Shown piece after piece: positions 17,107-44,970 of a DNA stretch of 50,949 nt. The notes under the pieces are model-generated. The model did no database searches and was not told the origin of the DNA. It saw only the letters and a list, made by a program, of their open reading frames with translations. The position numbers were made by a program, and so were the translations under genes. Every line of letters begins with the position of its first letter. Within the stretch, counting starts at the first letter, position 1. Origin of the DNA: an uncultured Planctomyces sp. (lineage in GTDB: Bacteria > Planctomycetota > Planctomycetia > Planctomycetales > Planctomycetaceae); NCBI GenBank assembly GCA_964539995.1, contig CAZILR010000001.1, forward strand, positions 1 to 50,949. The letters run 5' to 3'.

Positions 17107-17742
17107 ATGGCAGTGGATTTCGCGGTGGAACAATCGACATCAATGACGCTGCTGGACAAAGCCAAAGGTGGAGACAGTGCCGCTTGGGACTTGTTGGTTC
17201 ACCTCTACACGCCGTTGATTTTTCGCCGCTGCCGCGCGCTGAATTTGACTCAAGAAGACGCGAGCGATGTTGTTCAAGAGGTCTTCCTCAAACTCTTGAA
17301 CGGCTTACCGAAGTTTGAAGCTCGTGTGAACGGCGGCTTCCGCAACTGGTTGCGGACGATCACGCGGAATGAAGTCACCAACTGGTTTCGCACGCGGACC
17401 AGAGAATTCGATGCGGTCGGCGGCACCGACGCGATGCTGCGCTGTCTCGATTTTCCAGAAGTGGTCACGGACGAGTCGCTCCTGTCATCCGCCAAACCCA
17501 GTGAAACGCAAGACGCTCTTCACGAAGCGCTTCGCCGAATTCGTGCCGAATTTTCCGATCAGGCTTGGCTCGCCTTTTGGCGCACGAAAGTGGATGGCAT
17601 GCCCAGCGCGCGTGTGGCTGAGGAGCTGAAGATCACCGACGGAGCCGTGCGCACTTCCGGCTATCGTGTCTTGCGCCGGCTCAAACAGCTCATCGGCGAT
17701 CAAGACAGCTCCGAGCCGGAATCGGCATCACGCGACGAATGA
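17107..17742 (+). CDS. ECF-type RNA polymerase sigma factor (sigma-70 family)
   Basis: Region-2-like DLLVHLYTPLIFRRCRALNLTQEDASDVVQEVFLKL and region-4 HTH-like PSARVAEELKITDGAVRTSGYRVLRRLKQL. The start could be ATG 17107 or ATG 17143 (MTLLDKAKGGD). Confidence 0.9.
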   Translation: MAVDFAVEQSTSMTLLDKAKGGDSAAWDLLVHLYTPLIFRRCRALNLTQEDASDVVQEVFLKLLNGLPKFEARVNGGFRNWLRTITRNEVTNWFRTRTREFDAVGGTDAMLRCLDFPEVVTDESLLSSAKPSETQDALHEALRRIRAEFSDQAWLAFWRTKVDGMPSARVAEELKITDGAVRTSGYRVLRRLKQLIGDQDSSEPESASRDE

Positions 17743-17757
17743 GCGATCGGCGGCCTC

Positions 17758-20955: not shown

Positions 20956-20991
20956 AGACGTGCTGCCGACTTCGGCGAAACAAGCCTGAGC

Positions 20992-23532: not shown

Positions 23533-23677
23533 GCCGGCCGCTCGCACGCGCCAGGCTGGCCGTTCCGGGACAACATTGTGTGACAAACGCTCGTTTGATG
23601 GGTGATCGGCGACGAATGCCGGTTTGACAGTGACGCCAGATTGGCCACGTCCCCAACCCAGACTAAGGAGCGAGATC

Positions 23678-27517: not shown

Positions 27518-27597
27518 GATCATCCCTGCGATAAAGCCGGTGCGTTCCTGAGTTGAAGGCGAATCACCCTTGATGCGACGGAAAGCCTGGGTCTGTG

Positions 27598-29997
27598 ATG
27601 AGTGATTGCTTTGAATTGGTGGAACTCAGTACCGGCCGAGTGCATCCGGTCGATGACTCGAAGGAGTACTTAGCGGGACGAAGCACCGAAGCGGAGATTT
27701 TTTTATACGACCTCGGGTGCTCGCGGCAGCAATTTCAGATCGTTTGTCGAGAAGGCGAGTTGGTCTTGGATGCCTTGTCCAACTCCGTTCCGACGACTTG
27801 TGACGGGATAGTGGTCACAGCGCCGATACCACTGCGTGACGGGTTGGAGATCGAAGTTCACCAAACCAAGTTTCAAGTTCGCCAAGTGGCCCTGAACGGC
27901 GAACGGCCATCGCATTCGGTGGAGAACTTGATCAGTCACGACATTCCTTTGGGACAATCATTTTCGGTTTCTGGTGAAATGACGATCGGCCGTGATCCGA
28001 CCTCCGACATTTATCTGCCTCACATTCAAGTGTCGCGCTGGCATGCGAGATTACGCGTCGTCCCTGAGGGAGCGATCATTGAAGACTTGGGGAGCGCGAA
28101 CGGGACGTTTCTGGACGGCCGCCGATTGCTCTTGCCACAGCGGATGACAGCCGGCTCCACGATTGGCATCGGACCGTACTCTCTGACGTTCACCGGTTCG
28201 ACGTTGGTCACGGCGACACGCACGAACAATTTGCAGCTTGAAGGACGCAGCCTGACTCGCTGGGTGAACACTCGCGTCGGCCCGGAAAATCAGCGAAAGA
28301 CGATCCTGGATAATGTCTCGTTGGTGATTCGCCCACACGAGTTTGTCTGCCTTCTGGGACCAACTGGGTCTGGAAAGTCCACGTTGCTTTCGGCACTGAG
28401 TGCTCGCGTGCCGGCGAATCAGGGGCAAGTGCTGATCAACCAATCGAACTTGTACGAGCACTTCGAGTCTCTGAAACGCGACATCGCGGTGGTTCCGCAG
28501 CGAGACATCCTGCACGACGAACTGCCGTTGGTGGATGCCTTACGCTACACGGCGCGACTGCGACTACCGATCGACACGTCGGTCACGGAAATCACCGCTC
28601 AGGTGGATGACTTGTTGCAGCGAGTAGGGTTGCCGGCACATCGACAGACTTGTCTTGGGCAATTGAGTGGCGGACAGCGGCGGCGCGCGAGCTTGGCCAA
28701 CGAATTGATTTCAAACCCCAGCCTGTTGTTTCTGGATGAAGCCACTTCGGGACTCGATGAGCAAACCGATCGCGAAATGATGCGTTTATTTCGGCGATTG
28801 GCCGATGCGGGCAAGACCGTCGTGTGCGTCACTCACACCTTGGCGAATATCGCCGAGACTTGTCACCTCGTGGTGTTGTTGACGGTGGGAGGAAAGCTCG
28901 CGTTCGTCGGAACTCCCGCCGAAGCGTTGGAGTATTTCCAAATCGAGCGGTTGGCCGACGTCTATGAAAAGTTAGAACGCGATGACGAAGCGGACGAATG
29001 GCAGAGGCGATTCGTGCAGTCGGCGTTGTTCGGCAAGTATGTCACGTCCCGCCTTTCGGCGGGGGCGGTCGCGCCGCAAAAACAAGGTGTGCGTGAGATT
29101 CAGTTCTGGCATGACACTTGGAACACGGCTCGGCATCAGTGGCCGTTGTTGGCTCAGCGTTATTGGCAAGTCTTTCGCGCGGATCGCCGATCGTTGTGGG
29201 GCTTGGGAATTCAAGTGCTGATCGTAGCGGCGGTTTTGTCGCTGGTGTTTGGCGACGTGAGCACACTCGCGGAACCATTTCGCCGCGCCGCCATTTCTTG
29301 CAATGTCCTGTTTGTTTTGGGCGTGTCTGGTTTGTGGTTTGGCTGCAACAACTCGGTGAAAGAGATCGTTCGCGAACGGACGATTTACACCAAAGAACTG
29401 CAAGTGAATTTGGACCCGACCAGCTATTACGCCTCGAAGTGGTTGTTGCAGGTCGTTGCTGCGAGCGGGCAGTCTGTCGCGCTGGCCATATTGGTTTCCA
29501 CTTGGTGCTCCTTGCCGGGAAACTTGGCCGCCCAAGCGGGATTGGCGGCGCTGGGAGCAACCGCTGGAGTCTGCGTGGGCTTGTTCTTGTCGACGATCAC
29601 TGTAACGGAGGCGGCGGCACTGACCTTGGTCCCGTTGGTGTTGATTCCCCAAATCGCGCTGTCGGATGTCTTCGTCCCTTTGGAGGGCTTCTCTCGCTGG
29701 TTGGGGCAGGGATTGGTTGCCAACTACTGGATTTACGGGGCTCTCCGTGGAACGCTGCCGATCGAACTCGTCGAACAACTCAATCCTCCGCTCGCTCCGG
29801 TGTTGCCGTTGGATCGCGTACTGGTCGCAGTCGGATTGCAAATGGCAGCATTGATGCTGTCGTCGATCGTCGTGCTGCATGTGCGAGACCGAGTCATGGC
29901 CTGTTCCAACAAATCATTCTTGGAAGCCATACGAGATTTGCCTGTGGTCGGACCGGTCATCGTCGCCATCGCGCGCCGCTGGTTTCGTCGCCGATAG
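27598..29997 (+). CDS. FHA-FHA-ABC exporter (fused nucleotide-binding domain and ABC-2-type permease), Rv1747-like architecture
   Basis: Two FHA-like modules (GRSTEAEIFLYDLGCSRQQFQI; IGRDPTSDIYLPHIQVSRWHARL..GSANGTFLDGRRL). Walker A GPTGSGKST, signature LSGGQRRR, Walker B LLFLDEATSGLD, and about six C-terminal TM helices. GTG 27595 is an alternative start. Confidence 0.93.
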   Translation: MSDCFELVELSTGRVHPVDDSKEYLAGRSTEAEIFLYDLGCSRQQFQIVCREGELVLDALSNSVPTTCDGIVVTAPIPLRDGLEIEVHQTKFQVRQVALNGERPSHSVENLISHDIPLGQSFSVSGEMTIGRDPTSDIYLPHIQVSRWHARLRVVPEGAIIEDLGSANGTFLDGRRLLLPQRMTAGSTIGIGPYSLTFTGSTLVTATRTNNLQLEGRSLTRWVNTRVGPENQRKTILDNVSLVIRPHEFVCLLGPTGSGKSTLLSALSARVPANQGQVLINQSNLYEHFESLKRDIAVVPQRDILHDELPLVDALRYTARLRLPIDTSVTEITAQVDDLLQRVGLPAHRQTCLGQLSGGQRRRASLANELISNPSLLFLDEATSGLDEQTDREMMRLFRRLADAGKTVVCVTHTLANIAETCHLVVLLTVGGKLAFVGTPAEALEYFQIERLADVYEKLERDDEADEWQRRFVQSALFGKYVTSRLSAGAVAPQKQGVREIQFWHDTWNTARHQWPLLAQRYWQVFRADRRSLWGLGIQVLIVAAVLSLVFGDVSTLAEPFRRAAISCNVLFVLGVSGLWFGCNNSVKEIVRERTIYTKELQVNLDPTSYYASKWLLQVVAASGQSVALAILVSTWCSLPGNLAAQAGLAALGATAGVCVGLFLSTITVTEAAALTLVPLVLIPQIALSDVFVPLEGFSRWLGQGLVANYWIYGALRGTLPIELVEQLNPPLAPVLPLDRVLVAVGLQMAALMLSSIVVLHVRDRVMACSNKSFLEAIRDLPVVGPVIVAIARRWFRRR

Positions 29998-30008: not shown

Positions 30009-30989
30009 TCAGTATTTGCCGGTACGGTTGAGCCGTTCAATCTGTGCGAGCCGAGTTTCGATGGGCGGATGCGTGCGAAAGTGGTCGGCCAGATGTTTCA
30101 TCACTGTTCGTCGTTTGGTGGATGAATCCGACGTGGTCGCCGGACAATTCCGCTGAAGCATTTGCAGGCCGAGCGCCGCCTGATCGTGAGATCGCCCTTG
30201 TCGCCGCATCTGGGAGTAGCTCCAGCGGTCGGAAGCGAGTTCGTGTTCTTCCGAGTAGCCGACGGAAATGGCTCGATACGCCATCGCGGCCAGTCCTCCG
30301 ACGAGTTCACCTGCTGTTTGTTCGGCTCGGACAGCGGCGGTCATGCCTTGCACGCAATGCCGCAAATCGCAATGCGCGATCTCGTGACCGAGCACAAATC
30401 GCAACTCGTCATCATCGCGCACGACGTTCAACAGGCCGGTGTGAACGTAGACGTAGCCCCCCAAGTGCGCAAACGCATTGATGTTGTCGTCTTGAATCAC
30501 GGAGAAGTGGTACTCAATCTCCTTCCGCTTGCGAGCGTCCAAGAACGGTTGCACGAGTCGCTGGATGCGGCTCAACAACTCCGGCGCGTCTTTCAGCTTC
30601 TGCTTGTCGCGGATCATGGCATGCACGGATTTGCCAATTTGCTGCTCTTCGCGCGGAGTCAGGCCAGCCACTTGATCGAAGATTTCATTGCCGGCTTGCG
30701 TGACGTCGTGGCCGATATCGAAGGCGAGATCGACCAGAGTTCCGCGATGGTCCTGTTTTGGTGAGGACGTTGGCCGACGCGTCGGTGGGGAACCGGTCTC
30801 GGTCTTGGCCGCGTGACCGATCGGAGGATCGGACGGATTGGAATTCGAGGGGTGAGCATGTCCTGTTTTGGTTCGATCGAAGAGAGTCGCGCCGGCCCGC
30901 CGATGGACGATCGAGGCGACCGCCAGCAGGATGACCACGGTACAGACGACTTGAAATGCTCCGAACTTCACCGGCGGCGCACTCGACAT
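30009..30989 (-). CDS. Membrane-anchored M48-family zinc metalloprotease
   Basis: ATG 30989 is preceded by AGGAG. The N-terminal TM helix is FGAFQVVCTVVILLAVASIV. HEIAH lies at 30372-30386. NAFAHLGGYVYVHTGLL precedes the motif and the downstream EHELASD is a third-ligand-like segment. Confidence 0.9.
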   Translation of the reverse strand: MSSAPPVKFGAFQVVCTVVILLAVASIVHRRAGATLFDRTKTGHAHPSNSNPSDPPIGHAAKTETGSPPTRRPTSSPKQDHRGTLVDLAFDIGHDVTQAGNEIFDQVAGLTPREEQQIGKSVHAMIRDKQKLKDAPELLSRIQRLVQPFLDARKRKEIEYHFSVIQDDNINAFAHLGGYVYVHTGLLNVVRDDDELRFVLGHEIAHCDLRHCVQGMTAAVRAEQTAGELVGGLAAMAYRAISVGYSEEHELASDRWSYSQMRRQGRSHDQAALGLQMLQRNCPATTSDSSTKRRTVMKHLADHFRTHPPIETRLAQIERLNRTGKY

Positions 30990-31000
30990 GACAATTCTCC

Positions 31001-31948
31001 TCAGGATTCGTTGGCGGCCACGCGCCGCAGGGTCTCTTGAAATTCCAATCGTCGTTCGATCTGGCGGATTTCTTCCGGGGTGAATCGCGACCAATCGGGG
31101 TACGAATTCCGGCCGTCGTTTCTGCGTAGTTTGGGATGCAACATTTCCAAATTGGCAGGCGAAGTTCTCGCGATGGACCGGCTCTCTGCAACGATGTCTC
31201 GGTCGCGGTCCTCCCACACAACGTCGTTCTCTTCAGCCTGTATCCGCTTGAGAATCTCGCGACACGTTTCGGTATTCGCTCTGCCATCGGTGGGCCACGA
31301 GAATATGAGTTTGCCGTCGCTGTCCAAAAGATGTAGTTCATCCACGAAGCGAGAGTGTTCCAGCAGTTCCAGCGCATCGAGCAGCCATATGCACTTGTCG
31401 TCATGTTCGTCGCGAGAGACTCGCAAGACGAACCGTTCCGAATGCAGTGGATCCATTCTCCGGCAAACGCGGCTCCAACTTTGTGCCGGCGGAACGCAGG
31501 GGATCAGTACCACGACATGGTAGCCTCGGTCATGCAGATAGGTGACCAGAGTCTCGGACATCTCTGACGTGTCGAAGGTGCAAACTAGGACGAGGTGCCG
31601 ACGTGACTCGACAGCCTTCTCAACCAATCGGCCGGCAAGCTGAGCCGCCGATCCACGCAACGATTTTCCGGCCAAGTCGGCATCGTCCGGAGTCGCGACG
31701 GTGTAGCCAGGGTGCAACAACAGCAGCTCGGTCGGGTCGATCGTGACACAACCGCCATGTTCTCGCAGGCCGCGTCGCGCCGCTTCGGCCAGCACGGACT
31801 TTCCGGCTCCCGGCTGACCAGCCACCAAGATGGCTTGTGGTGCCGGCTGCGGTCGGCTGCCAGACAGGAAACGATCCAACGCCAACAGTTGCCACGCCTG
31901 TTCCAATTGTTGTTCGAGTTGTTCTGAGGATGGCTCATCGCGATTCAT
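31001..31948 (-). CDS. Zeta-toxin-like P-loop kinase with extra C-terminal domain
   Basis: AILVAGQPGAGKSVLAEAA (P-loop decoded near 31795-31830) is followed by VTIDPTELLLLHPGY. This matches the zeta/PezT pattern of a GxPGxGKS loop followed by D.D.fr..hP.y. Confidence 0.8.
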   Translation of the reverse strand: MNRDEPSSEQLEQQLEQAWQLLALDRFLSGSRPQPAPQAILVAGQPGAGKSVLAEAARRGLREHGGCVTIDPTELLLLHPGYTVATPDDADLAGKSLRGSAAQLAGRLVEKAVESRRHLVLVCTFDTSEMSETLVTYLHDRGYHVVVLIPCVPPAQSWSRVCRRMDPLHSERFVLRVSRDEHDDKCIWLLDALELLEHSRFVDELHLLDSDGKLIFSWPTDGRANTETCREILKRIQAEENDVVWEDRDRDIVAESRSIARTSPANLEMLHPKLRRNDGRNSYPDWSRFTPEEIRQIERRLEFQETLRRVAANES

Positions 31949-32169: not shown

Positions 32170-32397
32170 CTATGGCTTACGGGTTGGCTTCTTGGGTGTG
32201 AGATAGGGATGGGTCGGCGACTCCTTCTTCGTCGCATCGGCGAGCTTCCTCAGGTTGGCGGACGTGTTTTCCTTTCCGAGGTCAATGTCTTTGTTTTTGG
32301 AATTGTCTCCTTTGGAATTCCCGCCACCGCTGCCGAATGCTTGGGACAACGATTGGCCTTCAGGTTTTTTCTTAGGTTTCTTTCGGTCATCGAACAT
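32170..32397 (-). CDS. Small Lys-rich, probably disordered protein
   Basis: A 75 aa protein, MFDDRKKPKKKPEG...HPYLTPKKPTRKP. AAGGAA lies about 7 nt upstream of ATG 32397. The gene sits 9 nt upstream of the next gene. Confidence 0.5.
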   Translation of the reverse strand: MFDDRKKPKKKPEGQSLSQAFGSGGGNSKGDNSKNKDIDLGKENTSANLRKLADATKKESPTHPYLTPKKPTRKP

Positions 32398-32429: not shown

Positions 32430-33476
32430 TTAGCTTGTTCGTTGCGTCTTCTTGCGCGTGGTCGAGTTCTTTTCGGCTTCCGAAGAGCTGAGAGTCTTGG
32501 TGGTGTCACGACGTTGTTTCGCGACCTTGTCACCACAGCCGTAGCGCTGTGCCTTGGACGATTCGCTGCCGCCGAAAGCCCCGCCAAGCGACTTCTGACT
32601 CGTCTCTTTACCGGAATGACGTTGGTGAGCCGATGTCTCGGCGCGCTTCGCCATCGAGTCTGCTTGGGACGGGGTCTCTTTGAGGTAACTCTCCGCGCGT
32701 GGAGACTGCCAACCGTCAGAGACCCAGGACTTTCCGTTCTTGTCGACGTTGATCGTGGCTCGATAAAGCGGCTCTGGCTTAGCCTGGCTGCCTTCCGGTC
32801 GAGCCGAGATTTCGTACTGAATTTCCTTGAGGTCACGCGTCCCTTCGTGAGTCGAGGTGACCGTTTTCAACCAGACTTCGTTGCCATCGCGTTTCTGATC
32901 GTGGACTTCACGGACAAATTCTTCAACGCCGTGGTTTTGCAATTGATGATTCACCTCCTTCGGGCCGTAGGTGATGCCACAATCCGACTCCAATCCCGTT
33001 CCTGAGCCGCGGCTATGGAGTCGATCCACGTCACCTCGAGACTCAAGCCCGCTGCGGTTTTCGTTCTGGTAATCCAGCCGTTCTTGGGCCGGTCCGACTT
33101 TCGCGTTGATCGTGACTTCGCCCGTGGGGCCTTCGGTGACGGTGGTCGAATCGATCGACTCATTGCCGAGTCGCTGGCGGCGATCGAGTTCTGTCAACTT
33201 CTGCTGGTTGCCATTGGACTTGGTTTCCAGCTTCTGGATGTCTGACTCACGGCGATCGAGTTCGCCTCGCGATACGGCTTGTGGGTCGCGATCGTGACGC
33301 TCGCGGGCCTGACGCAACTCTTCCCGCTCGTGGCTGAGTTGCGACTTCAATTCTGCTTGTTCCTTTTTGAGCGGAGCACGTCGTCGATCATACGCCTTGG
33401 CCAGCTCGTCCTTTTGCTGCTGCTTGTCGGCTTCTGAATACATGCTGCGTTGGCGTGATTTGTAGTCGTCGGACAT
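32430..33476 (-). CDS. Coiled-coil protein with central globular domain and basic disordered C-terminal tail (putative effector/toxin)
   Basis: AAGGAA lies upstream of ATG 33476. The N-terminal 110 aa is charged heptad-like sequence (KEQAELKSQLSHEREELRQARERH). The central part reads DRLHSRGSGTGLES..PKEVNHQLQNHGVEEFVREV. The tail reads KVAKQRRDTTKTLSSSEAEKNSTTRKKTQRTS. Confidence 0.8.
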   Translation of the reverse strand: MSDDYKSRQRSMYSEADKQQQKDELAKAYDRRRAPLKKEQAELKSQLSHEREELRQARERHDRDPQAVSRGELDRRESDIQKLETKSNGNQQKLTELDRRQRLGNESIDSTTVTEGPTGEVTINAKVGPAQERLDYQNENRSGLESRGDVDRLHSRGSGTGLESDCGITYGPKEVNHQLQNHGVEEFVREVHDQKRDGNEVWLKTVTSTHEGTRDLKEIQYEISARPEGSQAKPEPLYRATINVDKNGKSWVSDGWQSPRAESYLKETPSQADSMAKRAETSAHQRHSGKETSQKSLGGAFGGSESSKAQRYGCGDKVAKQRRDTTKTLSSSEAEKNSTTRKKTQRTS

Positions 33477-33692: not shown

Positions 33693-35642
33693 TCAAGAAA
33701 CGCTCAAGGGATGCCGCTTCCATTTGAGCTTGCGGATGGGCAGCGGCCGTTCGTCGCGGCCACCCAAGAACACGATGGATTCGCAGTGTGGCTCTGGTTG
33801 TTCGCGCGAGCAGATTGACAGCTCGCGGAAACGGTCGGCCGGACACCGCGCATGGAACTGCACGTTCGAGCTGATCTGTTGCGCGTTGACCGGCTTGAAC
33901 CAACCTCGGCCTCCCACCGCCGAAGAGACCCCGTCGATGCCGATCAAGTCTTGGCCGAACAGTTGTGACGTGAAGCTGTTGGTCGCCTCATCGGGATTGC
34001 GGAGAAAGATGCCGGTCAGACAGTTCCCCAGGAATGCGCGAGCGGCTTCCGGGCTGCCGAGCGCGCCGATGTTTTGCGTCGCCACGATGTTGGCATGGAA
34101 GCTCTCGCGCGACAGGCGGAACGTGTCGGCGTCGCTCTTGTCCTGCTCTTGATTCTCTTTCGAGCCGGCCGTGAAGAACTTTTGGAATTCGTCGCAGAAG
34201 AAAAAGCTGGGGCGCTTTTTGCGCGGGCGTCGCAGCACCTCGCGGTAATACTCCAGCTTCAGGAAAATACCGATCGTGCGAGCCATCGTTTCGCGGTCGC
34301 TGGTCGGCATGTGCAAGTACAGGATCTTGCCGTTGTCGATCATGTCGGCGATGCGATGGGTGGACCGGCCGGCAAAGCGAGTGGCATACGGTTGCTTGAG
34401 GAACGGAAACAGCATCCCGGTCAGATGCGCCTGCACGCTGGTCCGTGTCTCCGGAGCCATCGTGGCCCATTCGGTCGCGAAGAACGCCAGGCAGTCGTGG
34501 CAGCGCGGGTCGGTCACGTCCAGGCGATCGGCTCGTTCCGAGATCGCCGCGAAGCTGCTGGCCAGTTCATTGATCTGTGCGAAGCACGGCGGCTCGCCGG
34601 GAGGATTCGTGAGTCGCAATAGCTCCAGCGCGTATTGAATGAACATCGTCGACTTGGTGATCCAGAACGACGAGTTCGAGTCTTTGGTCCCCAGCGATCG
34701 TGAAACGGCGGCGAAACGAGTCGCCAGTTCGTATTCGTCGTCGGCCGAGTCGAACGGATTCCAACACACGCCACTCGCGTCGTCTGGGTCGAGAACGATC
34801 AAGTCCTGACGGCGTTGATACCGCAAACACAGTGCCTCGACATCTCGAAAGAACGTCCCCTTGGGGTCCAGAATCAGGCCACTTGGTTTCAGACCGGCTT
34901 GCGAGGCCGAACCAAACAGGCCGTCGAGAACGGAGTTCAAAACACAAGACGTCTTGCCGCTGCCGATCTGTCCGAAGACGACACAATTCTGCACGAAGTC
35001 ATTCCATTCCCAGTCATGTCCGCCCGCTTGGAACTTCAGCCCGTCTAGGATCGCCAGCGGCAGCGGGATGCCACCATCCGGTGAGTCATTCAACAGATCG
35101 CTAACGCAACGCGGCGTGAAGGATCGCGACAGCTCGGTCTCGTAGCACAGTTGCCGGTGTTTCTGAGCGCACTCGTGAAACAGGAATCCTCCGAAGACGG
35201 GAAACAGGACAAATCCAATCAGCGACAGCCACCACACCATGTTGTACAGCGGCGACAGGACGCCGAGATCCGGCAGCCACATGCTGACCGTGATCAAGCC
35301 CACGCTCGACAGAAACGCTCCCAGCAGAAAGCAGGGGACGGCGATCAATTGATTGAGCGAGAACAGCAAGCTCTTCCAGGCTCGTTCGAGCGGTTCCGGA
35401 GCCGACTCGTAGCGCCACGAGTACAACAGCAGCAGATATCTCCGCAAGGGGCCGAAGAACTGGTAAAGCAGGCACAACAACGCCGCGAAGTAGGCGACGG
35501 TGTAGCCCAGTCGAAACGGCTGCGGGACATGCTTCGGCAGCCAATGAATCGTGACCACGGTGGCCACGCACAGTCCGGCCGAAACGAAGAACTGCGTTTG
35601 AGCCGCGACGACATCCGTCTTGCGTGGGCAATCAGCATGCAT
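33693..35642 (-). CDS. Membrane VirD4/TraG/TraD-like (type IV coupling protein-like) P-loop ATPase
   Basis: About four N-terminal TM helices. Walker A VFGQIGSGKTS decoded at 34951-34980, then GLILDPKG (the DPKG signature of VirD4/TraG), Walker-B-like PSFFFCDEFQKFF and LSRESFHANIVATQNIGAL. The start ATG 35642 overlaps the upstream gene by 11 nt. Confidence 0.85.
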   Translation of the reverse strand: MHADCPRKTDVVAAQTQFFVSAGLCVATVVTIHWLPKHVPQPFRLGYTVAYFAALLCLLYQFFGPLRRYLLLLYSWRYESAPEPLERAWKSLLFSLNQLIAVPCFLLGAFLSSVGLITVSMWLPDLGVLSPLYNMVWWLSLIGFVLFPVFGGFLFHECAQKHRQLCYETELSRSFTPRCVSDLLNDSPDGGIPLPLAILDGLKFQAGGHDWEWNDFVQNCVVFGQIGSGKTSCVLNSVLDGLFGSASQAGLKPSGLILDPKGTFFRDVEALCLRYQRRQDLIVLDPDDASGVCWNPFDSADDEYELATRFAAVSRSLGTKDSNSSFWITKSTMFIQYALELLRLTNPPGEPPCFAQINELASSFAAISERADRLDVTDPRCHDCLAFFATEWATMAPETRTSVQAHLTGMLFPFLKQPYATRFAGRSTHRIADMIDNGKILYLHMPTSDRETMARTIGIFLKLEYYREVLRRPRKKRPSFFFCDEFQKFFTAGSKENQEQDKSDADTFRLSRESFHANIVATQNIGALGSPEAARAFLGNCLTGIFLRNPDEATNSFTSQLFGQDLIGIDGVSSAVGGRGWFKPVNAQQISSNVQFHARCPADRFRELSICSREQPEPHCESIVFLGGRDERPLPIRKLKWKRHPLSVS

Positions 35643-36657
35643 GGCGGGCGACTCCCGTGAGATGCGGATTCTGAAGTACCGGCTGAACGTCAATCCCTCC
35701 GTCCGGGTTGCGGTGCAATGCGATCTTGGTGGCTCCCGCATCGCGAGCGGCGATCATGCCGTCGGCAAACATCGAGTCGAGCACGCGGACCAACTCGCGC
35801 GTTCCGAAGTCCGCCAACTTTAGACTGGCCGACAGTGCGTCGAACAACAGGTGCGGATCAACGAACTCAACCTCCAGGTCGTACTGTCGCGCGAGCGCGA
35901 TGGTGCGCAGGGCCGTGATCTCGGCGAGGACTTCCTTCGGCAGCGACTTGAAGACATAGATGCGGTCAAAGCGGCCAAGGATTTCGGGTCGAAACGCCTG
36001 CGAGTCGCGCAGGTGTTTCTTGATCGCGTCAGCTTGCTCATAGGGATCGGGCAGTTCGTCTGCGATGCGAGCGATCGCTTCGTGCTCTTTGTTGCAGGTC
36101 AGAATGATGATGGCCTTCGTGAAGTCGGCGACGCGGCCGCTTCCCTGCTCGGTCAATCGTCCCTCGCCCATCATGGACAGGAACAGATCGAAGACCTCGC
36201 TGGCGGCCTTCTCGACTTCATCGAACAACACGACTCGATTCGGATTGCTGAGCATCGCTCGTGTCAGCTCGCCGCCATCTTCGGCACCGACGAATCCTTT
36301 GGTCGTGCCGATCAAACGGGTCTTTCCCTGCTGCGGTGTGAGGTCCGCGCAATCGATGCGCTTCATCTGCTTTTCGTCACCATACAACGCCTCGGCGACG
36401 GCCTTGGCCATTTCGGTCTTGCCGGTCCCTGTCGGGCCGACGAACAGAATGTTGGCCACAGGCCGATCGCGTCGGACCTTCGCCTTTTGCTGTCGGATCA
36501 GGCGAACCAGATCCTCGACAACATGATCTTGTCCGCGCACACGGCCAAGAATGATTTGTCGCAAATGGGATTCGCTGGGAACGGCGTCCCCTTTCTGACG
36601 GCTGCTGAGCAGTTCCATCAGCTTGTCGCGGTCGGTAATGGACAGAGGGTCGCGCAT
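35632..36657 (-). CDS. Soluble Clp/Hsp100 D2-type AAA+ ATPase (AAA_2 plus D2-small-like C-terminus)
   Basis: GQDHVVEDLVRLIRQ. Walker A ILFVGPTGTGKTEMAKAVAEALYG (36415-36438). Walker B VVLFDEVEKA. Sensor-like GRFDRIYVFKSLPKE. All resemble ClpB/ClpA D2. Confidence 0.92.
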   Translation of the reverse strand: MRDPLSITDRDKLMELLSSRQKGDAVPSESHLRQIILGRVRGQDHVVEDLVRLIRQQKAKVRRDRPVANILFVGPTGTGKTEMAKAVAEALYGDEKQMKRIDCADLTPQQGKTRLIGTTKGFVGAEDGGELTRAMLSNPNRVVLFDEVEKAASEVFDLFLSMMGEGRLTEQGSGRVADFTKAIIILTCNKEHEAIARIADELPDPYEQADAIKKHLRDSQAFRPEILGRFDRIYVFKSLPKEVLAEITALRTIALARQYDLEVEFVDPHLLFDALSASLKLADFGTRELVRVLDSMFADGMIAARDAGATKIALHRNPDGGIDVQPVLQNPHLTGVARHAC

Positions 36658-36669
36658 GAGTTGCCTCGT

Positions 36670-37875
36670 TTAATGTGCCAGTGCGAGCTGGCTGGAAGAA
36701 GCGGTTTCGAGGGGAGCCGAAGTGGACTGACAGCGATCGACGAAATCCTGAGTCAGCACCAAATTCCTCAGTCCGTGAGTGACCGCCAGGTGAATGGGAT
36801 CTGAAATCCAGCGCGAGATGCGAATCCTCGAAGACTCGCAACCGGTGGCCTCAGAGAAGTGTTCGACCTCACGCACGACGATTCGTGGATCGACGTAATC
36901 CAATTGCAATTCGTAGCGGTGACACTCATCCGCCATGAGTTGCAGCAACACGCGAGCCTTTGTCACGTCATCCAATCGCCGCAAGCACAGACAGTCGGTG
37001 GCCAGGTTGAACAACGCTGGCGGACAACCGATGTGTTCGCTGAGTGCCGAGAGCCACTTTTCGCGGTGGGCCTGTGAATCCGACTGGCATTCCGGCGGTA
37101 ACGATGGGCTGGTCAAGAAGACCAAGCAGTTTTGAAAACTCACGCTGCCCGTGTCGGACGAGCATTGGCCGCATTGCAGCAGACCCTGCAACATTTGCCA
37201 GACTTTCGGATGCGCGGCTCCGGCATTTTCCAGAATGACCGTGTGAAAAGGCTGCTGCCGCACCGGCAACACCAATGAACCGTCTTGCCCGGAGACACCG
37301 CAGAGTCGTCCGACTGCCGAGTCGTCGGCGTAGTCGCCGAGATCGAGAATCGTCACCGCGCCGTGTCGAAAGAGTCGCTGTCCGAGACGTACCGCCATCA
37401 GCCGCTTGCCGATTCCTGGAGATCCGACCAACCAAAACGCTCCGAGAGGCGGTAGCGATTGGCGTTCGACACAACCGCGCAACGAGACCGCTTTTCGCAA
37501 ATGCTCGACCATCACCTCGATCGCTTGATCGTGGCCGAACACATTCTGCTTGAGCTGTCGCGCACACCAATCGAAGTCACCCGAAGTCTTCAACAGTAGT
37601 GTGTCCGAAACACCATCGACCGTCAGGTCAGCCGGAAGTTGCTGCTGCGAGTAATGACAGACGCCATCAATCCACCATTTCCAGACAGCTCGTTGATACA
37701 GCTTGGCCAGCAGGCGTCGTTCGTATCTCAAGCCGTAGATCGTGGCCGCGGCTGCTCCGGCCAAGCTGACAACCAGCGTCGTGACGATCACGCCCGTGAA
37801 TCTCAGCAGTAATTGGACGGTCATCCACGCGCCGAGCACGAGCAGCAGATTCGAGAGTGAGGATTGTCGTGGCAT
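36670..37875 (-). CDS. Membrane-anchored, degenerate paralogue of the Clp-D2-type AAA+ ATPase
   Basis: Two N-terminal TM helices (LLLVLGAWMTVQLLL..VIVTTLVVSLAGAAAATIYGL). FGHDQAIEVMVEHLRKA. The Walker A variant is LVGSPGIGKR. The Walker B position reads TVILENAGAA instead of hhhhDE. Confidence 0.85.
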   Translation of the reverse strand: MPRQSSLSNLLLVLGAWMTVQLLLRFTGVIVTTLVVSLAGAAAATIYGLRYERRLLAKLYQRAVWKWWIDGVCHYSQQQLPADLTVDGVSDTLLLKTSGDFDWCARQLKQNVFGHDQAIEVMVEHLRKAVSLRGCVERQSLPPLGAFWLVGSPGIGKRLMAVRLGQRLFRHGAVTILDLGDYADDSAVGRLCGVSGQDGSLVLPVRQQPFHTVILENAGAAHPKVWQMLQGLLQCGQCSSDTGSVSFQNCLVFLTSPSLPPECQSDSQAHREKWLSALSEHIGCPPALFNLATDCLCLRRLDDVTKARVLLQLMADECHRYELQLDYVDPRIVVREVEHFSEATGCESSRIRISRWISDPIHLAVTHGLRNLVLTQDFVDRCQSTSAPLETASSSQLALAH

Positions 37876-37924: not shown

Positions 37925-38224
37925 TCATTCCTCCGGAGTCTTCAACGTCCCTTCGATGGCGTCCGCGGTTCGGTCGAGCGTCTTGTCGAACACGTCCAGA
38001 ACCTTGTCGGCGGTCTTGGTGGCTCGGCCGGGCAAGCTTTGTCCGCTGCCAGGCAGACGCCTTTTCAATGCATCGACCACACCTCCAGACGACGTGTCAT
38101 CCGTCTTGGGTGGCTGAGCACCGCCGTCTCCGGTCGCGATGATCAACGCGGCACCCACGGCGATGACGCTGACGACCACTCGAAAAGTGCCAGAGCTGTT
38201 CCAGACTTGTTTGACGAATTCCAT
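37925..38224 (-). CDS. Small membrane-anchored protein (99 aa)
   Basis: N-terminal TM helix FRVVVSVIAVGAALIIA, a Gly/Ser/Pro linker, and a C-terminal amphipathic segment TADKVLDVFDKTLDRTADAIEGTL. AAGGTG lies upstream of ATG 38224. Confidence 0.6.
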   Translation of the reverse strand: MEFVKQVWNSSGTFRVVVSVIAVGAALIIATGDGGAQPPKTDDTSSGGVVDALKRRLPGSGQSLPGRATKTADKVLDVFDKTLDRTADAIEGTLKTPEE

Positions 38225-38362: not shown

Positions 38363-39070
38363 TCACTGCACATTCACAAACACGAGTTGCTCTTCACCTG
38401 GTTCCAGAGTCCGCACGAACCCCTGACCGAGACTGGTGCGACAAGCGACGGTGATTCCACCACCACCATCCTTGACCCCTCTGATCGTCAACGGAGTGGG
38501 GTTGTTGCCATAAACCGGAATGGTCAAGTTGGTCCCGAGATGGTTGATCGGAAAGATCCCCAGACTGCGCTGGCCGATCAGGACTTCCACTTCGTCCCCG
38601 TCCTCGGCACACGAGTCGTACAGGTGCAAGAGATAACTTCGAGAGCCGGCGTGTTCGGCGTCCGCGGCACTCACCGCGAAACCGCCGACAAACAGAGCTG
38701 GACCCATCGGAGTGACCCACTTCACCGACTGCTGTTGGAACGCCGGTTTGGTTTGCGTGTCCTTCCAATGTCGAGCCGCTTGCTCATGGTGCGACCAGTC
38801 GGAGTGCCCCGACTCAGAGGGACCGGACATGAACCAAGCGAGTCCGACGAGCGCGGCCGCCGCGATCGCCCACCGACGGACATTGCGACTCGATCGCGTC
38901 GCCGTCCTTTGGGAACTTGTCGTTGGTGATGAATTGCTCGGCGATGGACGAGCTGATGGCGACAACTCATCCCACTGCTGCGGGAACGGTGCTACGACTG
39001 TCGCGGCAGAAAATGGCGGCGGAGCCAACGCAGGCTGTGGATGTCTCGGTGTGGGATTCAAGGCGGTCAT
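38363..39070 (-). CDS. Bitopic membrane protein: Pro/Ser-rich N-terminus, one TM helix, beta-rich C-terminal domain
   Basis: A strong SD (GAAGGAGG) lies upstream of ATG 39070. The TM helix is WAIAAAALVGLAWFM. The C-terminus reads YLLHLYDSCAEDGDEVEVLIGQRSLGIFPINHLGTNLTIPVYG. Confidence 0.8.
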   Translation of the reverse strand: MTALNPTPRHPQPALAPPPFSAATVVAPFPQQWDELSPSARPSPSNSSPTTSSQRTATRSSRNVRRWAIAAAALVGLAWFMSGPSESGHSDWSHHEQAARHWKDTQTKPAFQQQSVKWVTPMGPALFVGGFAVSAADAEHAGSRSYLLHLYDSCAEDGDEVEVLIGQRSLGIFPINHLGTNLTIPVYGNNPTPLTIRGVKDGGGGITVACRTSLGQGFVRTLEPGEEQLVFVNVQ

Positions 39071-39217: not shown

Positions 39218-41242
39218 CTATCGCTCGTCGGTCCAGGGGGTCGAGGCGATCGTGATGGGCTTCTCACTCACCGGCTGGATAAATCGGGCCTTGACCAGTT
39301 CCGCACGCTTCTGTTCCGCCGCATTCGCTCGCGCCATGCCGGAGTAATATTGCTGGCTCGTCCCCGCCCAGCCTTGAGCCATGCGAGCGTAGTTGGCAGG
39401 CAGCGCGACGTAACCCTTTGCCGTGCGGACATAGTTGCCGGGGATGCTGGCGTACGATTTCGCGATTTGAATCGGTGCGATGACACGTCCCTCGATATCC
39501 GGTGCATTGACGCCGAATCTGCCAAGCACTCCGCGTACTCGGTTATAGTCGTGGAACTTTTGGTGAATGCGCTGTTGAATTTGATCAAGCTTAATCACGG
39601 GTGCATCGAGTCTCGCCGCGACCGCATTCATTTCACTCACCGCATTGTCCAGCTTGGACAAGCCGCCGACCGTGCCGCCTCCCGGAGTCAACGGAGTCGC
39701 GGGAGTGTGAAAGTCGGCGGCTTCCGGGAACCAATGCACGTCGTTGCGATGCAGCCAACCGGGTTCAGGCAACAAATTGTCGTTCACGGCGGTGACTTGC
39801 AGCCATTCGTCTTCGCCTCGCAATGACGTCTTCACTTGGGTCACGCGAACTTTGGAATGCGCCGTGATCTGTCGCAGGACGGTTCCTTTTTTGTCAGGTT
39901 GCTGTCGCAGCGCCACTTGCTTCAATGGCAGCCGCCCTTCGTTCCTGAGGTTGAGCAGTGGCTTGCCAGACTCATCGAGGTGCAACTTGCCTTCCTCGTG
40001 GGCGAGGTAGTTTTGAATGGTGGAGTAATCCCCTTTGACGAAGACCTCCAGGTGCTCTCCGGCTTTGGCGAACTCGGCCAGCGCATCAGAGAACATGCCG
40101 CAATTACGAAAGATGGCTCCGCGCCCCAATCGAGCGAGTCGGCATTCGGTGTTCAGATCGAGCGACGGCCGGAGGTAAGTTCCCAGCGCGTAGCAAAGCT
40201 GGTCGTGGTGTCGGCGATAGAGGTCCGATTCCGACCGCCGATCGTTCGTTGCCACGAGCGTCGTATAACCTTTGATGAATTCCGCACCGCTGGCTTGTTC
40301 GATGCGGATGCCTTGGTCCGCAACCAGATCTGCGGACTGACGACGTTCCACGTCGGGATCACTGGTGGTGATGACCCGGGTCGGTGCAAAGCTGGCGATC
40401 TTGGCAACGCTAAATGGCAACGCTAGGCCGTAGAACAGTTCAGGCCTTTGCTGCTCGCCGAGATCAGCCGCCGCATCTTGAGTCTTGGAGTAGGCATAGT
40501 CGAACATCTCAAAGAGCGACACTTCTCCGTTGCTGTTGCCGAGCAAGTCCGCTGCACCGCCGAGGCCCTCGGCCAAGAAGTACGAGAACAGAGCATGTGA
40601 CTCGCCAGCTTGTAGCTTGGGACTGACGTACGATTGCTGAGCCTCACTGCAACTGCTCACCAGCCAGACTCCTTCGGGTGGCGTTTGCAGCGGCTTGACG
40701 AACCCACGAATGCGGCCGTCCAAACTGTTGCGACATGCATCAACGACCAGCAGCCGTCGTTCGGCTTTGCAGTTTGAAAGACGCCCGGTGATCTCAGAGA
40801 CCTTGATCAACTTCGATTCCGCGAGCTGCGAGTCGTCAAGTGCCGCGTCGGTTGCATCTGACGGGCAGAAATAGCTCGTCTCTCGGATCGCGATGCCGTG
40901 TCCGATGGTCACGACCAAAACGAGGTCGTCCGTCATCGCCTTGGCGAAAGTACGATCGAGACGGTTGAGGATATTCATCCGGGTGGGCCGCAAGGTTGTG
41001 TCCGCAGCGGATTCCTGGATCACCACGATGTTGGATTCCGGGAAGCCGCCTCGCAGCAACACTTGTCGCAATCGCTCGGCATCGCGCTGGGTTCCCTCCA
41101 AGGAAGGGAGTTGCGTTGCTTGGGGATAATCACGAACGGCGATGATCACGGCATGACGAGTTTCCGCTCGAGCGGCTGGAGCTGTGGACCACAAACACCA
41201 GCCGGTTGCGAGCAACAGAACGAGGCGAATGGTCAGATTCAT
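39218..41242 (-). CDS. Secreted caspase-fold (peptidase C14) protein with intact His-Cys dyad, helical repeats and SH3b-like domain
   Basis: ATG 41242 is preceded by AAGGAG, with signal peptide MNLTIRLVLLLATGWCLWSTAPAARA. VVTIGHGIA carries the His codon at 40898-40900. LLVVDACRNS carries the Cys codon at 40733-40735. The SH3b-like stretch is VRVTQVKTSLRGEDEWLQVTAVN. Confidence 0.9.
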   Translation of the reverse strand: MNLTIRLVLLLATGWCLWSTAPAARAETRHAVIIAVRDYPQATQLPSLEGTQRDAERLRQVLLRGGFPESNIVVIQESAADTTLRPTRMNILNRLDRTFAKAMTDDLVLVVTIGHGIAIRETSYFCPSDATDAALDDSQLAESKLIKVSEITGRLSNCKAERRLLVVDACRNSLDGRIRGFVKPLQTPPEGVWLVSSCSEAQQSYVSPKLQAGESHALFSYFLAEGLGGAADLLGNSNGEVSLFEMFDYAYSKTQDAAADLGEQQRPELFYGLALPFSVAKIASFAPTRVITTSDPDVERRQSADLVADQGIRIEQASGAEFIKGYTTLVATNDRRSESDLYRRHHDQLCYALGTYLRPSLDLNTECRLARLGRGAIFRNCGMFSDALAEFAKAGEHLEVFVKGDYSTIQNYLAHEEGKLHLDESGKPLLNLRNEGRLPLKQVALRQQPDKKGTVLRQITAHSKVRVTQVKTSLRGEDEWLQVTAVNDNLLPEPGWLHRNDVHWFPEAADFHTPATPLTPGGGTVGGLSKLDNAVSEMNAVAARLDAPVIKLDQIQQRIHQKFHDYNRVRGVLGRFGVNAPDIEGRVIAPIQIAKSYASIPGNYVRTAKGYVALPANYARMAQGWAGTSQQYYSGMARANAAEQKRAELVKARFIQPVSEKPITIASTPWTDER

Positions 41243-41285
41243 GAGAAGACTCCTTGGAGAGGGAACATAATTGGGGAGTCGGCGA

Positions 41286-42722
41286 CTACTCATCGCCAGA
41301 CGTTTGGCTGAAGGACTGTGGGAAGCGTGATGCCGTGCCGGCATAAACCTTTTCGAGCGTTGGCGCGAGGACGTTGTCGTTCGCCTGGTCTGGGCTTCGC
41401 AGGCTCGACAGTCTCACAAAGCCTTCAGTCAACGGAGCGGCGGTGTAACCCAGCCGATTCACGCTGAACTCCGGACGGAATTGGCCTTCCACCTTCAGCC
41501 ACTCATTCCCGACAAACTTCGTGACCTTCACCAACGTCCCGGCGGGCAGGACTTCACGGACGGTGATCTCTCCGGGGACTTGGACGTTGGTGGCAAAAGG
41601 CAGCAGCACGATCAATGGCCGTTGCTGAGCACTCGCACGCGCCCAAGCGGCCGCGACGTTTTGAGCATCCGCCTTCGAGGCCACGGCCGTGTTGGTCAGT
41701 TGGTCAATCTCGTTCTGTGTTTTCGAGTCAGGCCGATACTGCGAGGCGCGAAGCAAGGACTCCAGCGCCGCGGCACCCTTCCGCTCAACCAGGAGTGTGT
41801 TGCGGGCGGCACTCAGCAATTCTTCGGCCAGGCGCTGGCGCAGCTCAATGGGCAGGCGACGAGCGTCATCGGGATCTTCGCTGATGGCTGCCAACGTGAA
41901 GTTGGCGGTGGTCTTGCCATGAAAAATCGGGGCCGTCAATTGCTGGGCCTCGGCCGAGAGCTGGCAATAGTCGGACAACTCGAGCAGCGAAACTTGGCCA
42001 TCTCTGTTGCCGTCAGCGTGCTGTGCCAGTCCATCAATCACAGATCGCATGAAACAGGATGTCGCACCGCGACCATCGGCTGGCTGGGTGAGTCGATCTC
42101 CATTGTTGAACATCACCCATTGGTGGTCGGGAACTTGTATCGGTCGTTCGCCCGCTTTCGAGGTGGACTTCTTGGCCACTTGAGCTCGGCTTCCCGCCGC
42201 GTCGATCAACAGACAGCGTTTTGTCGAAGCCGAGAGAGACATCTGGTGGACGACCTCTTGCACCGAGATCAGTGTTTTCCGAGTCTCTTTCGTGGCGGTG
42301 TCGTCGCTCGTGTTCAGTTCGGCCTGGGAGGTGTCGCTGGCACAGAGGAGATCGGTGTCGCCCAAGCGCACGGCATACGAGGAGACTGCCACCAGAAACA
42401 CATCATCCGCTCTGACACGATCCACCATTGCCTTCAATTGCTGACGAAAGCCATCGACGGTCGCAGGACGAGATTGACGTCCGCTGGGAATCGTCAACAG
42501 CACAACGTGATCGGCCGCGAAGCCCGCTTTCAACAATTGGTCGCAGAGTTGTCTCGCTCCCTCAACGTGATGTGGTGCCGACTCCAGTTCGGAATAGCGC
42601 GACGGAGCCAGGATCAATGCCCAGGCCGACCCCGGCTCAGCAGCCGGTAGGATCGCCGTGGCCGAGAACACCCAACTCAAGAAGGCGATTCGTAACCTCG
42701 AATTTGAACAGAGGAGTTTCAT
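41286..42722 (-). CDS. Secreted caspase-fold paralogue lacking both catalytic residues (pseudo-protease)
   Basis: It aligns by eye to the downstream paralogue: DDVFLVAVSSYAVRLGDTDLLCASD against DDLVLVVTIGHGIAIRETSYFCPSD (His to Tyr, codon 42375-42377), and KRCLLIDAAGSR against RRLLVVDACRNS (Cys to Ala, codon 42195-42197). The ATG overlaps the upstream stop as ATGA. Confidence 0.85.
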   Translation of the reverse strand: MKLLCSNSRLRIAFLSWVFSATAILPAAEPGSAWALILAPSRYSELESAPHHVEGARQLCDQLLKAGFAADHVVLLTIPSGRQSRPATVDGFRQQLKAMVDRVRADDVFLVAVSSYAVRLGDTDLLCASDTSQAELNTSDDTATKETRKTLISVQEVVHQMSLSASTKRCLLIDAAGSRAQVAKKSTSKAGERPIQVPDHQWVMFNNGDRLTQPADGRGATSCFMRSVIDGLAQHADGNRDGQVSLLELSDYCQLSAEAQQLTAPIFHGKTTANFTLAAISEDPDDARRLPIELRQRLAEELLSAARNTLLVERKGAAALESLLRASQYRPDSKTQNEIDQLTNTAVASKADAQNVAAAWARASAQQRPLIVLLPFATNVQVPGEITVREVLPAGTLVKVTKFVGNEWLKVEGQFRPEFSVNRLGYTAAPLTEGFVRLSSLRSPDQANDNVLAPTLEKVYAGTASRFPQSFSQTSGDE

Positions 42723-44905: not shown

Positions 44906-44970
44906 GATCAGTCTCCTTTTGGTGTGATCAAACAATCGCACGCAATGTTCATGAACAGCACGGCTTCGAA

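Follow-up and report, generated by a model that had tools for sequence, protein, structure and literature searches.

A coupling-protein-like ATPase with four predicted membrane helices in a conserved cassette beside toxin-like genes

Type IV coupling proteins (T4CPs) are viewed as substrate receptors that work only when docked to a type IV secretion channel, and the canonical members are common on plasmids. DotL and the VirD4 proteins of Xanthomonas and Stenotrophomonas are reported to recruit protein toxins as substrates. In a stretch of 50,949 nucleotides from an uncultured Planctomyces sp. (contig CAZILR010000001.1, positions 1 to 50,949; hereafter the window), the gene at 33693-35642 had been predicted to encode an orphan VirD4/TraG-like ATPase with four transmembrane (TM) helices and no accompanying type IV secretion system (T4SS) or relaxase genes. 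This ATPase shares with TrwB of R388, VirD4, Cagβ and DotL/IcmO the same ATPase fold, the all-alpha insertion, the Walker motifs and an N-terminal membrane anchor, whereas in its membrane domain four TM helices, joined by very short periplasmic loops, take the place of the two found in T4CPs. Among coupling proteins it stands apart in its membrane domain, its partners and its genomic habitat. We see about an even chance that it is the motor of a dedicated, T4SS-independent envelope machine, most likely one that exports the toxin-like proteins encoded downstream. The gene in question is:

33693..35642, minus strand: T4CP-like ATPase of 649 amino acids, with four N-terminal TM helices, a P-loop ATPase domain and an all-alpha insertion

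The longest form of this open reading frame (ORF) spans 33693-35741 on the minus strand and encodes 682 amino acids. An internal ATG at 35642 gives the protein of 649 amino acids with the N-terminus MHADCPRK, and this start was accepted because homologues of 640-650 amino acids align from residue 1 and because it overlaps the stop of the upstream AAA+ gene (35632) by 11 nucleotides. The ORF is not a chance frame, as it has a Pfam match above the cut-off and 100 homologues, the top one with an E-value reported as 0. All of the motifs quoted in the original prediction are present, and in an alignment of 27 family members they occupy columns that vary little or not at all. These are the Walker A motif VVFGQIGSGKTS (GQIGSGKTS, with GQIGSGKT at invariant columns), LDPKG about 30 residues after it, the Walker B motif FFFCDEF at invariant columns and the further motif SRESFHANIVATQN. 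The C-terminus is also conserved, as (K/R)WK.HP(L/I), and includes W641 and H644. The proposed four or so N-terminal TM helices, in place of the usual two, were borne out by the agreement between hydrophobic segments and model helices: a Kyte-Doolittle scan placed segments at residues 11-36, 45-66, 91-124 and 128-159, and four long helices coincide with them in the AlphaFold2 model (mean pLDDT 86.8, pTM 0.79). Short loops join these helices, and the T4CP type of anchor, two TM helices plus a periplasmic loop, is not seen. The four-TM N-terminal domain is conserved and defines the clade.

Pfam, a PDB profile search and AlphaFold2/Foldseek all led to type IV coupling proteins and so upheld the VirD4/TraG-like identity; the protein falls on the T4CP branch of the FtsK/HerA superfamily and not with HerA or FtsK. 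The Pfam family TrwB_AAD_bind matches at 2.5e-12 (46.8 bits; gathering score 20.5). The TraG-D_C match is sub-threshold, as are the matches to all T4CP models of NCBIfam, the top one being conju_CD1115 with 57.1 bits against a cut-off of 250. DotL/IcmO was found at 2.3e-9 when PDB was searched with the profile of the ATPase family. The model combines a nucleotide-binding domain with an inserted all-alpha domain in a TrwB-like fold, and its top Foldseek match is TrwB itself (E 1.5e-13, target-normalised TM-score 0.68-0.72), followed by Cagβ and DotL, with HerA, VirB4 and HerA defence complexes at E 1e-6 or weaker. A profile search covering 1.84 billion representative proteins returned about 65 full-length representatives under 1e-100 whose matches extend over the entire profile, four-TM domain included, after which the next tier drops to about 1e-64 and is aligned over the ATPase part only. 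Ten of these nearest outgroup proteins likewise score below every curated coupling-protein cut-off. By profile comparison, the four-TM ATPase family is a discrete clade in a poorly charted part of the superfamily.

The description of the gene as an orphan does not stand, since it overlaps the stop of an AAA+ gene, sits in a cassette found across phyla and has toxin-like genes directly downstream. On the evidence of gene order and homology, the ATPase is the core of a conserved cassette made up of X235, AAA-a, AAA-b, the ATPase and a WMxP micropeptide. Its partners in the window, with one further small ORF, are:

38363..39070, minus strand: X235, a bitopic protein of 235 amino acids whose N-terminus is disordered, with one TM helix and an Ig-like beta-sandwich at the C-terminus
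37925..38224, minus strand: ORF of 99 amino acids with one hydrophobic segment and no Pfam match
36670..37875, minus strand: AAA-a, a degenerate AAA+ protein of 401 amino acids with an N-terminal hydrophobic segment (residues 6-49)
35632..36657, minus strand: AAA-b, a ClpB/ClpV D2-like AAA+ ATPase of 341 amino acids
33560..33676, minus strand: WMxP micropeptide of 38 amino acids with a single TM helix, MFGLLFRVFLIALVVYLIIGLVLGGYTQILSYYYWMRP

The comparison loci, labelled L001 onward, comprise seven from exact-protein look-ups and 53 from a scan of one genome per species. Synteny was counted by tblastn, blastp and cross-locus clustering in the 50 non-duplicate loci with enough upstream sequence (the informative loci), and neighbouring ORFs in GC-rich loci were called by same-strand selection and cross-locus clustering. 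Of the 50 informative loci, 44 have X235 and 47 have AAA+ genes, and nearly all loci carrying them have the gene order and strand of the window. The micropeptide gene directly follows the ATPase gene in about 41 loci (24 non-duplicate loci by a strict pattern and 17 by a relaxed one) and is kept even in the few loci without AAA+ genes. It starts 17 nucleotides past the ATPase stop behind an AGGAG ribosome-binding site, and its product ends in YYWMRP in the window, the conserved ending being (Y/F)xWMxP. The ORF of 99 amino acids is kept, at the same position, only in the closest relatives L008 and L009. To our knowledge, the split AAA+ pair, X235 and the micropeptide are not obligatory partners of any T4CP.

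More than 40 genomes carry the cassette; they represent at least six bacterial phyla, with hosts among the Planctomycetota, Acidobacteriota (Bryobacterales), Binatota, Gemmatimonadota, Verrucomicrobiota and the Alpha- and Gammaproteobacteria. Four carriers are cultured, namely Roseobacter sp. S98, Neorhizobium sp. LjRoot104, Seohaeicola saemankumensis and Methylosinus sp. Sm6. Complete genomes with the cassette include those of Roseobacter sp. S98 (NZ_CP194010.1) and Tepidisphaera (CP051526.1). No account of the cassette was found in the searchable literature, including papers on polymorphic toxins, conflict systems, Lipocone and the planctomycete plasmidome, and it matched no known system in PADLOC. 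A known defence system was considered and rejected, as PADLOC gave only generic AAA+ matches and a weak match to mad8, from which none could be assembled.

The two AAA+ proteins differ in the state of their motifs. AAA-b matches Pfam AAA_2 (5.8e-38) and the NCBIfam models ClpB (2.7e-55) and ClpV1 (4.9e-48), and it aligns only with the D2 half of ClpB, ClpV and ClpA. In 21 orthologues its motifs are intact: Walker A GPTGTGKT, Walker B FDE(I/V)EKA, the pore loop G(Y/F)VG, sensor 1 LTSN, the arginine finger RPEIxGR and sensor 2. From these motifs AAA-b is predicted to be a threading unfoldase. AAA-a has a weak match to Pfam AAA_2 (1.3e-7) and is degenerate across the family, with Walker A reduced to GxGKR, Walker B to LEN and no aromatic pore loop. 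An arginine replaces the Mg-binding serine or threonine of Walker A and LEN replaces the DE of Walker B, and both replacements are conserved in orthologues. Such changes point to selection for nucleotide binding without hydrolysis, and we infer that AAA-a may have been conserved as a pseudo-ATPase, serving to tether AAA-b to the membrane or as its scaffold there. The C-terminal beta-sandwich of X235 is well predicted (pLDDT about 90) and carries the motif YDSCAEDGD...DGGGGITVACRTS, of which DGD...DGGGGIT is invariant. X235 has no family match, and a Foldseek search of its model against PDB gave no match below E 1e-3 (the best was about 1e-2), which describes a generic Ig-like sandwich.

The absence of T4SS, relaxase and integrase genes from the 50 kb holds for all large ORFs of the window, among which Pfam and NCBIfam recognised no VirB4, VirB6, VirB8-11, pilin, relaxase or integrase. 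Unlike T4CPs in their usual setting, the ATPase is not accompanied by a relaxase gene or by VirB or Dot/Icm channel genes in the window or in six of the seven annotated loci, and it is not found on plasmids. Mating-pair and relaxase genes are missing from the same six of seven Pfam-annotated loci, and 48 of the 50 informative loci are without a relaxase. A tblastn search of 72,556 plasmids found no full-length member of the family; it returned only four distant matches of at most 29% identity, confined to the ATPase domain. Window scans, annotated loci and plasmid search agree with the original prediction in placing the ATPase outside any recognisable conjugation or T4SS context. MobA/MobL-type relaxase genes adjoin the ATPase gene in L007 (12464-16467) and apparently in L043 (9080-12700). 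The ATPases of these two loci are distant members of the family that lack X235 yet have the WMxP micropeptide, and they may be a link between the four-TM clade and true conjugative coupling proteins.

Downstream of the micropeptide, the window carries a group of toxin-like and small genes:

32430..33476, minus strand: effector-position gene encoding 348 amino acids, without a signal peptide; the N-terminus is a coiled coil, followed by an Ntox4 domain and a charged, disordered tail that contains an LGGAFGG motif
32170..32397, minus strand: ORF of 75 amino acids that resembles, as judged by eye, the C-terminal tail of the effector in L009
31945..32160, minus strand: helical ORF of 71 amino acids whose stop overlaps the start of the zeta-like gene; no Pfam match
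31001..31948, minus strand: zeta-toxin-like P-loop kinase of 315 amino acids (Pfam Zeta_toxin 1.9e-26)

The Ntox4 match of the protein of 348 amino acids lies above the Pfam cut-off (2.3e-9; 38 bits against 25), and its orthologue in L009 is 40% identical. Ntox4 is a toxin domain delivered by Photorhabdus virulence cassette (PVC) and extracellular contractile injection systems (eCIS) (Zhang et al. 2012, PMC3482391). The ORF of 75 amino acids looks like an orphan, duplicated or displaced effector tail module. The kinase scores 93 bits for Zeta_toxin against a cut-off of 22.3, and zeta-like genes recur downstream of the cassette in 12 loci, some of their products having long proline-rich tails. 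As in the epsilon/zeta (PezAT) systems, the kinase is preceded by a small helical ORF that overlaps its start; in the window, however, this ORF of 71 amino acids has no detectable similarity to epsilon or PezA, and the pair recurs downstream of the cassette in 12 loci. The small ORF is a candidate antitoxin, immunity protein or chaperone, and a comparable ORF precedes the zeta-like gene in L006, L008 and L048.

Across the loci the slot after the micropeptide is filled by mutually unrelated proteins. A Pfam census of 138 same-strand downstream ORFs found Zeta_toxin in eight, Peptidase_S8 in five, ADP-ribosyl cyclase in three and T6SS_VgrG3-like_C and Gln_amidase in two each, with the majority having no Pfam match at all. 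A relaxed Pfam search of ten effector-position proteins added only weak hints of Ntox46 and Endonuclea_NS_2, and several of the effector-position proteins contain nuclease-like motifs (DDAGHL and PD-(D/E)xK-like). In the Bryobacterales, the slot holds giant mosaic proteins of 1050-1977 amino acids that share modules in shuffled order. Two of these contain a VgrG3-like peptidoglycan hydrolase module, two a glutamine deamidase module, and none has a signal peptide. Unrelated toxin domains are thereby seen to swap at a fixed site beside conserved machinery, as in a polymorphic toxin locus.

Some further features of the downstream proteins were noted. The giant mosaics (L002:12739-18006, L014:2481-5633, L020:5352-11282, L023:2284-7050 and L035:12585-16394) have C-terminal tails of low complexity in which proline, serine or charged residues abound. 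Extremely charged proteins or tails, also of low complexity, up to 400 amino acids long and with many Q, E, R, K and D residues, are found repeatedly downstream of the cassette, for example at L026:10713-11927, in the C-terminal half of L006:12136-13551 and at L007:12089-12274. A motif S-L-x-G-A-F-G-G, about 45 residues from the C-terminus, is common to effectors with different toxin domains; its carriers are the Ntox4 proteins of the window and L009 (12294-13403) and a nuclease-like protein of L008 (12218-13369), and it could be a targeting signal. The two large PG_binding_1 proteins of L038 and L041 were considered as exported cargo and rejected, as their Sec signal peptides rule them out as evidence of ATPase-dependent export. 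They are more likely to be structural parts of the periplasm than cargo.

The cassette also varies in its envelope-related genes. In 11 proteobacterial loci, genes for a CsgG-like lipoprotein and two signal-peptide proteins precede the cassette on the opposite strand, and CsgG-like genes also flank it in L001 and L018. The proteobacterial variant has an AAA+ pair of the CbxX/SpoVK/EccA type and an extra membrane protein of 617 amino acids before the ATPase, for which a PDB sequence search returned nothing. In several Acidobacteriota and in Brevifollis, the cassette is followed by a membrane-anchored S8 protease. These subtilases (L018:12313-14190 and L047:12076-14082, with others in L019, L026 and L033) combine a TM helix at the N-terminus and an I9-like propeptide with a polytopic membrane domain at the C-terminus.

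The tools used returned the family and fold to which the ATPase belongs, the state of each motif, the predicted membrane segments, the synteny and the variable toxin domains downstream. From these results we infer how such a machine might be assembled, what it carries, in which direction and to what biological end; everything in this account beyond homology, motifs and synteny is of that kind. The ATPase would form a TrwB-like hexamer, held in the inner membrane by four helices for each protomer together with the WMxP micropeptide of 38 amino acids, and the resulting 24 TM helices plus micropeptides could make up an inner-membrane motor or channel. The soluble AAA-b, through its G(F/Y)VG pore loop, may unfold or prime the cargo and feed it into the ATPase, with the N-terminally anchored AAA-a holding AAA-b at the membrane and X235 extending its Ig-like domain into the periplasm. 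The presumed cargo would be leaderless proteins with interchangeable toxin domains, in the window the Ntox4 protein and, as a probable second cargo, the zeta-like kinase with its partner of 71 amino acids. In Proteobacteria the CsgG-like lipoprotein and the secreted accessory proteins could supply the outer-membrane step, and the nearby Ser/Thr kinases and a forkhead-associated (FHA)-ABC protein may regulate the machine. Export is favoured because the leaderless downstream proteins have domains otherwise known from secreted toxins, because the peptidoglycan hydrolase module has no leader, and because of the giant mosaic toxins and of the envelope-spanning accessory genes. A peptidoglycan hydrolase has no target in the cytoplasm.

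The wider proposal, that the cassette represents a previously unrecognised class of secretion system in diderms which exports leaderless, interchangeable toxins without a VirB apparatus, is tentative and falls a little short of an even chance. Part of this proposal, held just as tentatively and by analogy, is that the cassette could be a T4CP-based counterpart of the type VII (ESX) systems. The two would share a logic that brings together a membrane-bound ATPase from the FtsK/HerA superfamily, an AAA+ protein of the cytosol, a membrane-anchored S8 protease and leaderless toxin cargo from neighbouring genes. The AAA+ protein of L045, which is of the proteobacterial variant, matches EccA (4e-68), and the S8 protease of the Acidobacteriota and Brevifollis loci has the type VII mycosin as its top NCBIfam match (8.8e-53). 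However, all the EccA and mycosin matches are below the curated cut-offs (230 bits against 467 for the AAA+ protein of L045 and 180 against 279 for the protease of L018), both genes lie outside the cassette of the window itself, and the likeness is a resemblance only. The type VII motor EccC/EssC consists of three FtsK-like domains, whereas the window ATPase has a single domain of the T4CP type. Pfam and NCBIfam recognised no EccB, EccD or EccE (no search was made for WXG100 substrates), and the hosts of the cassette are diderm bacteria, unlike those of type VII. By this comparison, the resemblance is one of analogy and not of membership. A parallel in cargo is offered by the bacteria-killing X-T4SS of Xanthomonadales, in which the coupling protein is reported to be linked to antibacterial toxins including peptidoglycan hydrolases and nucleases. 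The X-T4SS, however, has a full set of VirB1-11 and X-Tfe effectors with XVIPCD domains, and neither was seen for the cassette.

Several observations weigh against export. No outer-membrane component was identifiable in the window or in most of the non-proteobacterial loci. The trafficking domains PAAR, LXG, RHS, MuF and XVIPCD were not detected in the effector-position proteins, most of which have no Pfam match, and no known immunity family was found among the small ORFs beside them. The LxGAFGG tail motif is present in only three closely related loci, and positive C-terminal tails (+4 to +10), considered as a T4SS-like signal, are common in clear effectors and not universal, an uncontrolled observation to be taken as a lead only. 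We know of no coupling protein that has been shown to translocate proteins without a VirB-type channel. Abortive-infection defence systems, too, typically have variable toxic effectors beside ATPases, and immediately upstream of the cassette there are caspase-like genes of the kind found in conflict systems. The main rival is therefore a membrane-associated conflict or abortive-infection system in which the ATPase, perhaps together with the AAA+ pair, would sense or engage invading DNA or proteins at the membrane and release the neighbouring toxins (zeta kinase, nuclease-like proteins, NADase-like cyclase and Ntox4) inside the producer. We consider this unlikely, even with variable toxic effectors at a fixed site beside conserved NTPases and a patchy phyletic distribution in its favour. 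SIR2-HerA, DUF4297-HerA, PDC-M37 and Dodola all couple an ATPase of a related superfamily to toxic effectors, as in the cassette, and the related HerA ATPases that drive SIR2-HerA and DUF4297-HerA defence are among the weaker fold matches. In PADLOC, AAA-b matches PDC-M37B (2.4e-27) and DolB of Dodola (5.4e-17), and the two upstream caspase-like genes, of the EACC1-associated type, are syntenic in L008. Yet only these AAA+ component profiles were matched: among the ten proteins scanned, namely the ATPase and nine neighbours, there was no A-component and no PDC-M37 or Dodola partner, and the ATPase itself matches only mad8, weakly. In contrast to the HerA defence systems, the ATPase is membrane-embedded and its fold is nearer to TrwB than to HerA (E 1e-13 versus 1e-6). 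The neighbours are envelope and signalling genes rather than restriction-modification, CRISPR or mobile-element genes, and the CsgG-like lipoproteins, the signal-peptide proteins and the periplasmic Ig-like domain point to an envelope-spanning machine. A leaderless peptidoglycan hydrolase and giant multi-toxin mosaics also fit export better than they fit suicide effectors.

That the ATPase is a displaced canonical coupling protein, serving a T4SS or an integrative and conjugative element elsewhere in the genome, is highly improbable because of the strict cross-phylum synteny with the AAA+ genes, X235 and the micropeptide and the lack of any full-length member on the 72,556 plasmids. Its T4CP fold and TrwB_AAD_bind match would suit such an origin, as would the family members beside MobA/MobL-type relaxase genes in L007 and L043. 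A preprint on planctomycete replicons describes chromosomal T4CP-relaxase pairs, although no complete mating-pair formation system on the chromosomes (10.1101/2024.01.22.576637). The ATPase also lies far below the curated T4CP cut-offs (57 bits against 250) and has four TM helices with minimal periplasmic loops instead of two that flank a loop. Another reading takes the ATPase as a minimal DNA translocase that works without a mating-pair apparatus and exports or imports DNA like TraB of Streptomyces, with the downstream nuclease-like proteins as DNA-processing partners. It is established that coupling proteins and their FtsK/HerA relatives pump DNA, and nuclease-like motifs (DDAGHL, PD-(D/E)xK-like) in several effector-position proteins and a relaxase gene beside the ATPase in L007 and L043 are in keeping with this. 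We nevertheless find it quite improbable, as the relaxase is missing from the 48 informative loci noted above, the effector slot also holds a zeta kinase, a glutamine deamidase, a peptidoglycan hydrolase and an ADP-ribosyl cyclase, and a conserved partner has a pore loop and is predicted to unfold proteins. It is improbable as well that the cassette encodes a housekeeping or stress machine of the envelope, for instance one for extraction or turnover of membrane or periplasmic proteins, with the toxin-antitoxin-like genes as unrelated passengers. The ClpB-like AAA+ protein, an M48 (HtpX/BepA-like) peptidase, S8 proteases and an ABC exporter recur nearby and speak for such a machine, whereas the distribution is patchy, with only about 65 representative clusters among 1.84 billion proteins, the toxin-like genes consistently come directly after the micropeptide, and the M48 peptidase is found in only five loci.

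If the cassette does export toxins, a coupling-protein ATPase can power another kind of envelope machine, as an autonomous translocase. The poorly studied phyla Planctomycetota, Acidobacteriota and Gemmatimonadota would then have a new route of toxin delivery, which would also be used by marine bacteria of the Roseobacter group and by the Neorhizobium root isolate LjRoot104, and the cassette would bring with it a catalogue of mostly unannotated effector families. The cultured carriers make the export reading testable. The public sequencing runs found were DNA metagenomes, from biofilter and freshwater sediment, with none of RNA among them. If the cassette is a defence system instead, we believe it would be the first to be built on a membrane coupling protein.

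The genes around the cassette in the window include the following:

27595..29997, plus strand: FHA-ABC exporter with two FHA domains, an ABC ATPase and an ABC-2 permease (Pfam)
30009..31217, minus strand: M48 metallopeptidase with one TM helix (Pfam Peptidase_M48 1.5e-25)
39218-41344, 41286-42722, 42719-44941 and 44971-47013, minus strand: upstream block of two caspase-like genes, an unannotated gene of 478 amino acids and a Ser/Thr kinase with tetratricopeptide repeats (TPR)

In 19 loci, the window included, the FHA-ABC exporter is encoded no more than 10 kb from the ATPase gene, and it is a possible regulatory or export partner; Ser/Thr kinases recur near the cassette in 18 loci. The M48 peptidase, the true start of which is probably internal, near residue 76 of the ORF, is only loosely associated with the cassette. 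The two caspase-like proteins match Peptidase_C14, with sub-threshold matches to the NCBIfam model 'caspase, EACC1-associated type', and one of them has an SH3 domain. The gene of 478 amino acids is syntenic in L008 along with the caspase genes, and the block may extend the cassette or form a conflict system of its own.

Farther from the cassette, an ORF of 1941 amino acids at 316-6141 (plus strand) has weak WD40/beta-propeller matches and overlaps an antisense ORF of 599 amino acids without matches (1909-3708, minus strand). The region 17107-26674 (plus strand) encodes an extracytoplasmic function (ECF) sigma factor, a Ser/Thr kinase of 1065 amino acids with TPR, a TonB-dependent-receptor-like beta-barrel and a protein of 1016 amino acids with PPC, FG-GAP, an M10-like metalloprotease domain and a weak match to a type IX secretion (T9SS) sorting domain; pairs of an ECF sigma factor and a kinase are also found near the cassette in L004. 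Finally, the gene at 6310-16920 (minus strand) encodes a protein of 3536 amino acids with an S8 peptidase domain, RTX repeats, a serralysin C-terminal domain, cadherin, FG-GAP, DUF1573 and HYDIN-like Ig domains, which is probably a giant secreted or surface protein.

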